A DNA stretch of 21,603 bases, from positions 1 through 21,603 of IMG/VR virus record IMGVR_UViG_2778261535_000006, one strand, 5' to 3'. The position numbers were made by a program, and so were the translations under genes. Shown here one piece after another: positions 16,565 through 19,725 of the stretch. Each line of letters opens with the position of its first letter. Position 1 is the first letter of the stretch. The notes under the pieces were generated by a model, which did no database searches, was not told the origin of the DNA, and saw only the letters and a list, made by a program, of their open reading frames with translations. Source of the DNA: a virus (Duplodnaviria; Heunggongvirae; Uroviricota; Caudoviricetes).

Positions 16565-16595
16565 TATCAATTCCTATTGGTATTACAATGAATGA

Positions 16596-16624
16596 ATAAT
16601 AGCAATGCGTATTAACCATGGCAA
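16596..16624 (-). promoter_or_regulatory. Putative pR (early rightward-equivalent promoter driving the cro-like operon)
   Basis: Minus strand: -35 TTGCCA (16624..16619), 17-nt spacer, -10 TATTAT (16601..16596), ~30 nt upstream of the cro-like start; overlapped by a palindromic operator candidate. Confidence 0.5.
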
Positions 16625-16662
16625 TAGCAAAACGTGTTTTGACCATCAATACGCAAGCGTAT
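16598..16662. promoter_or_regulatory. OR-like operator cluster between the cro-like and repressor genes
   Basis: Imperfect palindromes TAATAGCAATGCGTATTA (16598..16615) and ATACGCAAGCGTAT (16649..16662) plus AATAGCAA at 16623..16630; the same AATAGCAAT motif recurs at the OL-like site. Confidence 0.4.
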
Positions 16663-16674
16663 AAATTAAAACTT

Positions 16675-17367
16675 ATGAAAAAAGAAACTCTTGCTGATCG
16701 CTTAAACCTAGCGATGGAACAATCTGGGATGTCTCAAGGCGCTCTTGCAAAGGCGTCTGGCGTAGCTCAACCCACAATCTGGAGACTGACAAGCGGCAAC
16801 GCGCGCGGCTCAACAAAAATTGTTGAAATAGCTAATGCATTGGGTGTTCGAACAGAGTGGCTCTCATCAGGCATAGGCCCGATGAGAAATGACGGTCAAC
16901 AATCAGGGAAGCCTACTGTCAACCATTCCAAATACTTCAAGATTGACGTTCTTGATATAGAAGTGAGTGCCGGGCCGGGAGTCATCAACCGTGAGTTTGT
17001 AGAAGTCCTACGCTCGGTTGAGTACTCGTTTGACGATGCTCGTCACATGTTCGATGGCAGGAAGGCGGAAAATATCCGCATCATTAACGTGCGTGGTGAC
17101 AGCATGTCAGGAACGATCGAACCAGGTGATCTGCTGTTCGTTGATATCACGGTTAAATCTTTCGACGGTGATGGCATCTATGCGTTTCTGTACGACGACA
17201 CCGCCCATGTAAAGCGCCTGCAAATGATGAAGGATAAGCTGCTGGTTATCTCTGATAACAAGAGCTACTCACCGTGGGACCCGATCGAGAAAGACGAGAT
17301 GAACCGGGTGTTCATCTTCGGTAAGGTTATTGGGAGCATGCCCCAGACGTACAGGAAACATGGATAA
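16675..17367 (+). CDS. CI-like prophage repressor (N-terminal HTH, C-terminal S24 LexA-like autopeptidase)
   Basis: HTH MSQGALAKASGVAQPTIWRL; peptidase motifs GDSM (Ser) and HVKRLQ (Lys). Start uncertain: ATG 16675 (MKKETLADRL...) has no SD and may be leaderless, whereas the track start 16618 lies inside the putative pR -35. Confidence 0.8.
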   Translation: MKKETLADRLNLAMEQSGMSQGALAKASGVAQPTIWRLTSGNARGSTKIVEIANALGVRTEWLSSGIGPMRNDGQQSGKPTVNHSKYFKIDVLDIEVSAGPGVINREFVEVLRSVEYSFDDARHMFDGRKAENIRIINVRGDSMSGTIEPGDLLFVDITVKSFDGDGIYAFLYDDTAHVKRLQMMKDKLLVISDNKSYSPWDPIEKDEMNRVFIFGKVIGSMPQTYRKHG

Positions 17368-17433: not shown

Positions 17434-18297
17434 ATGGATTGTGACGCTTTACAGGATATAAAAATCTCTCTTAGGTATGACGGAAAAGATGCTTTAAATC
17501 ATGAAATAGATTTGAACTGCCTAGGAGAATCCCTAAAGGGTTTTTCTAAAGTTCTCTCAACAGCAGCTTCTTTCTCTGTTACACAAAAATATAGTAAATA
17601 CATTAATTATCAGGAAGTTAAGGTTTACGCACGCGAAGCAAAAGCTAACTGCTTTACTCTTGAAGCAGTTCTTAACTTCGCCACTCAGAACCAGTTGTTC
17701 TCGGGGATCGCCGCAACTATACTTGGCGCAATACTACAATATATTTTTGCGAGAAATTCTAACAAGAAAGATGAAATGAAAGCTTTGCAGCAGTCACTTG
17801 AAAAGGCCATAGAGGCACTAGGAAACAAGGATGCTGGAACCATTGATAAGTTGATCTCTTTGATTGACCGAATGGCTGTAGAGCTTCGCCCCTCTGTAAG
17901 GCAGGCAGTATCACCTATTGGTAATACTTGCGATCAGATAAGTGTTGCAACAAATGTTGACGGCTGCCTTCTAAAAGTTAACGAGAGAGATAAAGCTGAA
18001 ATTGATAGGCTTGATGATGATGAAGTTCTCGGTCTTCGTGAGTATCGTGCTTTTCTTACAGAATTTGATGCACAAAATATGACAGCTAAAATAATTTTAG
18101 ATGGTGATGACTCAAAAAAGAGAATCACTGCTGAAATTAGCGATCCAGCTGCAGGAAAGAAGAATAACCCGTATATTAGAGCTCTTAGTGCATATATATC
18201 AACCAAAGGTGATCCATCTGCAGTATTCACTATAACCGCAAAGGCTACTGTTAAAAAAGGCCAGATAAACAGGTTATTTATTGTAGATGCGAAATGA
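17434..18297 (+). CDS. Hypothetical 287-aa protein, AT-rich, in the rexAB position downstream of the repressor
   Basis: Clean ORF with its own terminator; one central hydrophobic segment ([19 protein letters not shown]) followed by a predicted helical Lys/Glu-rich region; no motif I recognise. Spot counts on three 60-nt lines give 40%, 42% and 28% GC. Confidence 0.7.
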
Positions 18298-18301
18298 TTT
18301 C

Positions 18302-18328
18302 CCCGGCCGTCGTGCCGGGTTTTCTTTT
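18302..18328 (+). terminator. Intrinsic terminator ending the repressor operon
   Basis: CCCGGC-cgtcgt-GCCGGG followed by TTTTCTTTT, 5 nt after the stop codon of the 287-aa gene. Confidence 0.65.
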
Positions 18329-18450
18329 GCCTCCCCTCATCACACACCGTTCAAAAAACCACCATAACCCCCGCTTCAGTTATCGCTATGCGATGCAAGT
18401 CACAAAATTAATTCCTTTTGCTATCAAACAGTTAATATCAAAATGCATCA

Positions 18451-18496
18451 ATCAATAGCAATAAGTATTGATATCACTAATAGCAATAGCTATTAT
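18451..18496 (+). promoter_or_regulatory. Putative pL with OL-like operators
   Basis: -35 TTGATA (18468..18473), 17-nt spacer, -10 TATTAT (18491..18496). Palindromes TAATAGC-aata-GCTATTA (18478..18495) and ATCAATA-gcaataag-TATTGAT (18451..18472) overlap the promoter. Confidence 0.5.
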
Positions 18497-18773
18497 CACC
18501 ATGTCGCAACAACACAACGATACGGCAACCACCTGATTCGCCGTTGCGATGACCGCTTAGATCCGCAGCTTGAATTTCAGCAGGCTCCGGGGAGTGCGAG
18601 GGGTGAAGCGGACGCGTGAACGTCGGTGTGACCAGCTGAAATCAACTCAACACTTCATACCTCAGTCGCTTCAACGAGGCGGCTTAGTTATGACAACCGG
18701 CGGCCATCCACCGCCTGAATACGCGCAGAAGTCTCTATATGTTCAGCAGCCCAGCTTACGGGCAGGAGTTTTT

Positions 18774-18980
18774 ATGGTTCATCAACATTACGGAACTCAG
18801 ACCGTTAATCGCGGTGCCGTCCGGCCAGGTATGCTGGTTAAACACAAAGATGGTACCTGGACGGCATCAGCTAATTTGCGCGGTCGGCTTTACTTGCATC
18901 GCGGCATCGAACGAACGTACACAAAAGATTTGCTCGTGGAGGTTTACCTGAATGGTACTGGCGGTGGTCTGAGCCACTAA
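18774..18980 (+). CDS. Hypothetical 68-aa protein; the frame is open back to a TTG at 18570 with an Arg-rich N-terminus
   Basis: ATG 18774 has a strong RBS (GCAGGAG, 6 nt). The upstream in-frame extension encodes RLRGVRGVKRTRERR, reminiscent of an N-type arginine-rich motif, but the start codon is unproven. Confidence 0.35.
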   Translation: MVHQHYGTQTVNRGAVRPGMLVKHKDGTWTASANLRGRLYLHRGIERTYTKDLLVEVYLNGTGGGLSH

Positions 18981-18984
18981 CTAC

Positions 18985-19291
18985 TCACTTGTTTGGGCCG
19001 TGTGGAGCCAAAGCAAATTCAAGGTTGTAGATACTCCCATCAGGGGCTTTGAAATCAACCTCAAACCGAGATGGCGGATTGAATGGATCGAGTACATTTT
19101 CTGCTACGCATGTAGATCTCCAATTGATATGGCCTTTGCCAAGCGAGCGAGATTCCCACCAAGCTCTCCAGGTCTGGTCTTGCGGTTGATCACTCCCCTT
19201 TTCCCTTACATACCAATGATTCTTTTTCGACTGCTTACCCATTTCTGCGGTTGGGTACATCGGAGAAGACTTTAACTTATCAATCAGCATT
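18985..19291 (-). CDS. Hypothetical Trp-rich protein (~101 aa) antisense to the pL operon
   Basis: ATG 19291 with AAGGTG 7 nt upstream; reads more like a protein than the overlapping plus-strand ORF 19000..19275; no family recognised. Confidence 0.4.
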
Positions 19292-19428
19292 CTAGACACC
19301 TTATTTATCAGATTTTGAGCAAGACATAGTGTGATCCAACATTTTGATTAATCAAGCGAGTTCATTCAAACAACTATGCAGTTAACGCACTGTCTGGATC
19401 CGCACATCAAAATTTCAGGAGTTTATCC

Positions 19429-19725
19429 ATGAACGCTTATTACATTCAGGATCGTCTTGAGGCTCAGAGCTGGGCGCGTCACTACCAGCAGATCGCCCGT
19501 GAAGAGAAAGAGGCAGAACTGGCAGACGACATGGAAAAAGGCCTGCCCCAGCACCTGTTTGAATCGCTATGCATCGATCATTTGCAACGCCACGGGGCCA
19601 GCAAAAAAGCCATTACCCGTGCGTTTGATGACGATGTTGAGTTTCAGGAGCGCATGGCAGAACACATCCAGTACATGGTTGAAACCATTGCTCACCACCA
19701 GGTTGATATTGATTCAGAGGTATAA
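19429..19725 (+). CDS. gam: Gam (RecBCD inhibitor), short form
   Basis: [60 protein letters not shown]... matches the lambda Gam C-terminal 98 aa; CAGGAG RBS. Confidence 0.95.

Follow-up and report, generated by a model that had tools for sequence, protein, structure and literature searches.

A structured leader RNA, a KilR-type kil gene and a convergent orphan gene between pL and gam of a lambdoid Escherichia coli prophage without N

Introduction

The put RNA of phage HK022 is a conserved, structured RNA with which the pL transcript begins; it is found in lambdoid phages which have no N, and it occurs together with many immunity regions. It suppresses transcription terminators by binding to RNA polymerase. 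In the lambda N/nut system the N protein carries an arginine-rich motif (ARM), and the nut elements are boxA and boxB, the latter with a hairpin loop of 5 nt.

Two further systems are relevant for the genes of the early-left operon. The Rac prophage carries kilR in this operon, upstream of the recombination genes, and the 5' UTR of kilR is itself an RNA feature, the small RNA KilS (PMC8175672). In E. coli K-12 (locus L376 of our collection, NC_000913.3, 1418405-1418502) KilS is annotated as an sRNA in the kilR 5' UTR, with a terminator at its end. Expression of kilR has consequences for the host: OxyS lowers NusG, this leads to read-through transcription into Rac kilR and the cells stop growing (PMC5793797). 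The other system is sieB, an exclusion gene expressed by the prophage, which in lambda, P22 and Rac lies on the opposite strand within the pL operon, presumably with a promoter of its own; in Rac, sieB is located opposite kilR.

In this work we analysed the pL-to-gam interval of a 21,603-nucleotide stretch of viral DNA (IMG/VR record IMGVR_UViG_2778261535_000006, called the window below). An earlier note, written from the letters of the sequence, had pointed to three ORFs in this interval, and all three are where it had placed them: a TTG-initiated frame from 18570, a 68-aa ORF starting with ATG at 18774, and a minus-strand ORF at 18985-19290. As described below, they turned out to be of very different nature.

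Results

The window is a lambdoid E. coli prophage without N; a search for an N homologue in the window found none. On its minus strand it encodes cro-like and CII-like proteins, O, P, Ren, RusA, a Q-like antiterminator, endolysin and terminase. The plus strand carries a gene for a cI-like repressor (16618-17367), then a 287-aa gene with DUF7946 and DUF7947 domains (17434-18297), which has its own terminator (18302-18329) and is followed by pL. The pL promoter, to which the earlier note had referred, is TTGATA-17-TATTAT at 18468-18496 on the plus strand, with a transcript start at ~18504. It is matched by pR (TTGCCA-17-TATTAT, 16624-16596) on the other strand, and the operator region at 18436-18503 is repeated at OR (16566-16646), i.e. 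OL and OR are repeats of each other. After the interval studied here the next gene of the early-left operon is gam (19429-19725, plus strand). We could also agree with the description of Gam, Bet and Exo as lambda-type proteins (Pfam Gam, E 2e-64).

The DUF7946/DUF7947 gene occupies the position between the cI-like repressor gene and pL where rexAB would be. Among the PADLOC models its product matches the candidate PDC-S42, though weakly (E 1.5e-4). The relatives have different cargo at this spot (an ASCH-domain protein, a DUF6932 protein or a transmembrane protein), thus it looks like a swappable slot for genes expressed in the lysogen.

A chromosomal prophage of E. coli UMB200201_11 is 100% identical to the window over the region 18300-19430. 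The PGAP annotation of this genome has just two genes in the pL-gam interval, namely the ORF of 68 aa on the plus strand and that of 101 aa on the minus strand. The segment 18300-18945 is common to 16 isolated E. coli phages (Bievrevirus 4A7, 4C10, Perceval and others), with 87-95% identity. In 4A7 and Perceval, whose annotations we examined, this segment spans the entire interval from pL to kil, the antisense gene is missing, and the distance from the kil stop codon to the gam RBS is 72 bp, compared with 448 bp in the present prophage. Since 4A7 and Perceval share 18300-18945, the part peculiar to this prophage type is confined to the 3' end of kil and 18981-~19410; the earlier view, which took the whole ~900 bp for an insert foreign to lambda, was too wide. 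The leader/kil part is present in 2,229 of 5,426 complete E. coli genomes, the full arrangement with the antisense gene in only 28. As a separate observation, in the record of phage 4A7 (L375, 24135-27584 of NC_049946) the iron/manganese transporter genes sitABCD are annotated beside the integrase gene, they are either cargo or flanking host DNA.

The pL transcript begins with a non-coding leader RNA of ~270 nt (18504-18773, plus strand), which extends to the kil RBS and is common to prophages of at least three operator/immunity types. It contains a core module (18546-18648, plus strand), which scores 133.7 bits with our leader-core covariance model (CM R2) and is present in one copy per locus. 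Copies of the core of the type seen in the window stand behind three operator types. Diverged homologues were found behind at least seven more promoter/operator types, phi80's own pL among them (these are referred to as L336-type, 15 IMG/VR loci), and one in a prophage of Scandinavium hiltneri. In every case the leader is conserved from the first transcribed position as far as GACCAGCUGAAA, beyond which the operons differ. A scan of genome contigs for the leader yielded one true new lineage, that of Scandinavium, and one chance match, whereas a scan of metagenomes returned almost only copies of the window type.

Two hairpins can be recognized in the core. Hairpin A (18563-18590, plus strand) consists of the stem CCG-C-AGCUUG / CAGGCU-C-CGG and an invariant 8-nt loop, AAUUUCAG. 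In the three lineages the stem appears as AGCUUG/CAGGCU, CACUUG/CAGGUG or GACUUG/CAGGUU, with the outer pairs CCG/CGG or CCA/UGG. Hairpin B (18608-18627, plus strand) has the form GACG-CGUGAA-CGUC in the window and CGGGC-AAUGGAGA-GCCCG in the homologues. When the two hairpins are taken together, 94.8% of the alignment cells are paired and four pairs have changed on both sides, compared with 26-48% pairing in slid controls, it must be noted, however, that only three lineages contribute to these values. The folding energy of the whole leader was no better than that of shuffled sequences (z = -0.01), thus our statements on the leader structure are based on covariation only.

The earlier note had suggested to look for nut-like elements in the leader. 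Conserved, covarying hairpins are indeed there, but we saw no clear correspondence with lambda nut and none with HK022 put. There is some likeness to nut in that a boxA-like sequence, CGCUUAGA, is located 8 nt before the invariant-loop hairpin. The boxB loop of lambda has 5 nt, the loop AAUUUCAG of hairpin A has 8, and neither CGCUUAGA nor hairpin A conforms to the lambda boxA or boxB consensus. Rfam gave no match above the gathering thresholds for the whole window and nothing meaningful at E<=10, and CM R2 had no match in phi80, HK022, Rac or the put-type phages. In blastn comparisons of the leader with HK022 and with the window the only hit was the OL/OR operator repeat. The leader of phi80 was considered as a homologue of the core and rejected, because the alignment was unconvincing and CM R2 did not match phi80.

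Downstream of the core, the leader contains a second element (18656-18715, plus strand), which we call the CAUAC element. It is composed of the sequence CAUAC, a 9-bp hairpin (18664-18684), an AUG at 18690 opening a short ORF (MTTGGHPPP...), and a GGCGG/CCGCC hairpin (18699-18715). In the alignment of the 9-bp hairpin 96.5% of the cells are paired and six of the nine base pairs are compensatory. Its 3' arm always begins with an SD-like GAG(G), which is GAGG in the window, 9-10 nt ahead of the AUG. The ORF continues after MTTGGHPPP... with a variable tail of 10-133 codons, in the window it chances to run in frame into kil. The element is far commoner than the leader core: it occurs in E. coli, Klebsiella and Enterobacter phages and in phi80, with more than 250 copies in the pL operons of enterobacterial lambdoid phages (loci L021-L358). 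Elsewhere it usually follows directly after an intrinsic terminator or after an HK022-type putL. The occlusion of the SD-like GAG(G) by the hairpin and the polyproline motif of the short ORF suggest translational or EF-P-linked control.

Two other arrangements were seen among the pL operons. In one L336-type locus (L363, 8510-9087) two genes of 141 and 50 aa come after the leader, neither of them with an assigned family or an arginine-rich motif, then a strong terminator and the CAUAC element. In two IMG/VR loci (L208 and L225) a boxA-like sequence, CGCTCTTTAACAA, takes the place of put stem II after an HK022-type stem I, so that the leader is a put/boxA hybrid.

The 68-aa ORF (18774-18980, plus strand) has the strong RBS attributed to it, with GGAG upstream of ATG 18774. 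The claim that the region contains no kil did not hold: by homology this ORF is a KilR-type kil gene, and its product is predicted to inhibit cell division through FtsZ. The protein matches PHROG 294 ('Kil protein for bacterial septation inhibition') over residues 1-67 with E 1.6e-35, and NCBIfam NF008465 ('FtsZ inhibitor protein', the Rac KilR family) with E 9e-17. The latter score is under the curated cut-off (60.8 vs 92 bits), which indicates that the protein belongs to a diverged subfamily. When compared with K-12 Rac KilR the protein shows 34% identity along its entire length, from the first residue on (BLASTP E 2e-12), and the profiles of the Kil family begin at, or just ahead of, ATG 18774. 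Among 83 distinct variants of the gene we counted 77 distinct substitutions, 48 synonymous and 29 non-synonymous, distributed as 13/17/47 over the three codon positions; there were no stops and no indels, a pattern typical of a coding sequence.

The similarity with Rac goes further, as kil lies in the early-left operon upstream of the recombination genes and has a 5' UTR which is an RNA feature. The leader RNAs themselves are different, CM R2 finds nothing in Rac and there is no homology between KilS and the leader core of the window. From the example of KilS it is nevertheless clear that the leader of a kil gene may constitute an RNA feature by itself. In Perceval (L002, 3260-3679) and other GenBank records Kil is annotated as a 139-aa protein extending across the arginine-rich frame, or the region is called 'membrane carboxypeptidase'; both labels look like annotation errors.

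The minus-strand ORF (18985-19290) encodes 101 amino acids, five of which are Trp, so that its description as Trp-rich was right. We refer to it as X101 (PGAP WP_000904075.1). It is convergent with kil, the two stop codons are 4 nt apart. The start codon, ATG 19290, is common to all homologues, a 104-aa version would begin at GTG 19299. The RBS AAGGTG given in the earlier note is located at 19302-19297 on the minus strand, 6 nt before the ATG, and is conserved in the relatives. Homologues in E. coli, Cronobacter and Enterobacter form 19 clusters among 5.8 billion proteins, they are 62-99% identical over the full length, and an exhaustive HMM search gave just two strong clusters at 50% identity. 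The only PHROG match is the unnamed family 16212, which covers residues 1-101 of 101 (E 9e-70). None of the 50,697 phage records in the collection contains X101.

The median dN/dS of X101 is 0.06, with saturated dS. On this pattern of substitutions it is a real gene, and as the earlier note had it, it belongs to no recognisable family: searches for Pfam, NCBIfam, PADLOC and fold matches all gave negative results. (Kil likewise has no PADLOC match.) Reading of the sequence by eye, i.e. without a predictor, showed no hydrophobic stretch. Two odd matches deserve mention. A weak match to a 522-aa repeat protein (P0022) was dismissed as beta-hairpin repeats. A predicted 99-aa protein (P0019) consists of the first 27 residues of X101 and a lambda-P-like C-terminus (PF06992), it is probably the result of a deletion or rearrangement in some prophage.

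It had been argued that the antisense gene must have a promoter of its own, and the comparison of the homologues supports this. A promoter-like pattern, TTGAT(T/A)-N16-18-CA(G/A)AAT, is found 61-65 nt before the ATG, i.e. at a fixed distance, in 27 of 32 distinct upstream regions, the outer flanks of which differ. In the window the putative promoter is at 19326-19355 on the minus strand, with a -35 sequence TTGATT (19355-19350) and a -10 sequence CACACT/CACTAT (19333-19326). This -10 sequence is weak, and a strict promoter scan of the window did not list the promoter. An apparent match between it and the phage operators was judged to be due to chance.

Of the 44 IMG/VR loci with X101, 35 have the gene in tail-to-tail orientation with a Kil homologue (38-100% identity), with the stop codons exactly 4 nt apart. 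On the side away from kil a Gam-like gene usually starts ~135 nt from X101, and the gene is antisense within the early-left operon at every locus with identifiable neighbours, the classic type of accessory-gene arrangement that the earlier note had recognized. The remaining nine loci have no KilR-type gene within 4 kb. There, X101 is tail-to-tail with a lambda-N-like gene, has another arginine-rich N-like gene in its vicinity, or has a terminator of its own behind it. The two genes need not occur together: 9/44 X101 loci lack Kil, and X101 is present in only 28 of the 2,229 kil genomes. In prophages carrying X101 the 3' end of kil is of a separate allelic type (from ~18797, clearly from 18911), suggesting that kil and X101 recombine as one cassette.

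The arginine-rich frame (18570-18773, plus strand, upstream of kil) is part of a TTG-initiated frame of 136 codons extending from 18570 to 18980, with an N-terminal region which includes RLRGVRGVKRTRERR. It had been proposed to encode an N-type arginine-rich protein, a proposal which did not survive the comparison of variants. In the 83 variants the segment 18570-18689 has 7 synonymous and 15 non-synonymous substitutions and 2 stops, with codon positions 12/6/6, i.e. without third-position bias, and insertions of +1 and +5 nt. The adjacent segment 18690-18773 shows the same kind of picture (5 synonymous, 12 non-synonymous, 1 stop; indels of +37, -2 and +1 nt). The frame is open from 18570 to the kil stop in just 52 of the 83 variants. 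The stops include G18618T and, in more than 20 loci, a change of CAG to TAG at 18663. The TTG is not preceded by an SD sequence, and residues 1-59 have no Pfam, PHROG or NCBIfam match. A tblastn search with the peptide against 50,697 phage genomes returned the same 16 E. coli phages only, and no N protein.

The origin of the motif is suggested by its position: hairpin B overlaps the KRTRERR codons (18606-18626), and in the L336-type loci and in the Scandinavium hiltneri prophage the same frame reads *RAMESP in place of KRTRERR, with the hairpin kept through compensatory changes. The loss of KRTRERR and the retention of the hairpin indicate that the arginine codons (CGN) derive from the arms of the RNA hairpin. 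Judged from these comparisons, no gene exists in this frame, which is open by chance, as a by-product of a G+C-rich and partly palindromic leader.

Discussion

We think that the region is best explained as the pL operon of a prophage without N, in which a structured non-coding leader is followed by a KilR-type kil, by a convergent X101 with a promoter of its own, and by gam-bet-exo; we would give this reading a probability of about 0.7. The reality of the two genes, their family assignments, the architecture and the conservation of the RNA helices are directly established, the proposed functions are predictions. Thus kil, started at ATG 18774, would make a toxic FtsZ inhibitor in lytic growth, as expected from its homology. 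For X101, the most likely role is that of an accessory gene with expression in the prophage state. It is a small, probably soluble protein under strong purifying selection; it would be transcribed in the lysogen, from a sigma-70 promoter at ~19326-19355 and without the help of pL, and could act as a 'moron'-type accessory or exclusion gene in the manner of sieB or rex. As no domain, defence-model or fold match is available, the role of X101 is a guess from its position. We found no minus-strand terminator between X101 and kil, and with only 4 nt between the stop codons, the X101 transcript must continue antisense into kil. Leaky kilR expression is a known hazard (PMC5793797), and we infer that antisense transcription from X101 also damps leaky or read-through Kil output. 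This effect cannot be essential, because X101 occurs without a KilR-type gene within 4 kb at 9 of 44 loci, and kil without X101 in ~2,200 of the 2,229 E. coli genomes carrying the region. The antisense gene is a real, uncharacterised gene in a familiar type of arrangement, the 68-aa ORF is a gene of known kind; the covarying pair of leader RNA elements was not expected.

It is possible, although we would rather doubt it, that the leader core (18546-18648) acts in cis as an antiterminator RNA, a functional analogue of HK022 put, and allows read-through from pL without an N protein. In the window-type and L336-type loci alike the leader begins at about +1 of pL, as the location of put requires, and the core keeps this place at the extreme 5' end of the transcripts behind at least ten operator types. 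Its two covarying hairpins have invariant loops and linkers, and the window has no N gene. In locus L363 a strong intrinsic terminator stands downstream of the leader, with no gene for an arginine-rich protein in between, and in phage 4A7 a terminator-like site precedes the DksA-like gene, xis and int. The comparison with put itself was negative. Rfam did not detect HK022 putL, i.e. it has no put family, therefore we built a put covariance model of our own (CM R1) from 47 put sequences. The positive controls, HK022 putL and putR, scored 89.6 and 28.7 bits with this model, whereas nothing above 7.4 bits was found in the window, 4A7 or Perceval. The leader described here is also longer (~100-150 nt) and has other helices. 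HK022 has putR in addition to putL; a second copy of the core in the pR operon was not found by nhmmer, and CM R2 gives one match per locus. Between the leader and the end of kil-gam-bet-exo the window contains no strong terminator which such an RNA would have to overcome, the proposed structure is backed by three lineages only, and the leader could instead govern kil translation, mRNA stability or Rho loading.

A bolder version of this idea, which we regard as speculative and somewhat improbable, is that the core represents a new class of protein-independent antiterminator RNA, unrelated in sequence to put, which would explain early-left expression in phages without N (the Bievrevirus-like and some phi80-like phages); separately, it would see in X101 a new safeguard or exclusion protein linked to Kil.

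With regard to X101, the main rival to the accessory-gene view is that it is a dedicated antidote or regulator of Kil, the protein, an antisense RNA or both neutralising leaky Kil in the lysogen. We consider this unlikely. What speaks for it is the junction of the two genes, where the 4-nt spacing is invariant in 35 of the 44 loci even when the Kil proteins are only 38% identical, along with the X101-specific allele of the kil 3' end and the movement of the pair as a cassette. Moreover, no terminator stands between the two genes, and leaky kilR expression arrests the growth of the host (PMC5793797). That each gene also exists without the other, at the loci and in the genomes mentioned above, weakens the antidote role.

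Less probable still is that X101 is expressed during infection, as an anti-defence or host takeover protein, and not in the lysogen. Small orphan proteins encoded in the early-left region are often counter-defence factors, and X101 is located among early genes, beside gam, the gene of a RecBCD inhibitor. Its orientation opposite to pL and its separate, conserved promoter do not fit this role well, convergent transcription from pL would oppose its expression in lytic growth.

The accessory-gene view, which we prefer, is close to the case of sieB, which also lies on the opposite strand within the pL operon. There are differences: X101 is downstream of kil and tail-to-tail with it, whereas sieB is upstream, the profile and fold searches with X101 pointed to no relationship with SieB, and no hydrophobic stretch was seen by eye in this small protein. 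Exclusion would thus be a putative role, by analogy.

The reading that the frame from 18570 (or from GTG 18603, which has GGGGAG upstream) encodes an N-like antiterminator whose ARM binds the leader hairpin is highly improbable, for while KRTRERRCDQ resembles lambda-type ARMs such as MDSQARRRERRAAKQ in locus L043, a covarying hairpin with an invariant loop stands just upstream beside the boxA-like CGCUUAGA, and the window has no other N gene, the frame unlike lambda N is not a conserved coding sequence (non-coding substitutions, stops and frameshifts, a TTG start without SD, no profile match ahead of residue 60 and no tblastn match to any N), and where this RNA has diverged homologues (L336-type, Scandinavium), they have no ARM.

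For annotators, the lesson of this case is that what looks like an ARM in an open frame can be the shadow of a G+C-rich RNA hairpin. For the phages themselves, the pL operon contains a compact two-gene cassette, kil-X101, with a gap of 4 nt and a strongly constrained protein without known relatives, which makes X101 a tractable candidate for a new prophage function, either exclusion or the control of a toxic gene. The leader adds two RNA elements which are supported by covariation and match no Rfam family. One of them, the leader core, sits exactly where phages without N would need an antitermination device. Should it function as put does, antitermination by RNA alone would have been invented twice, independently.
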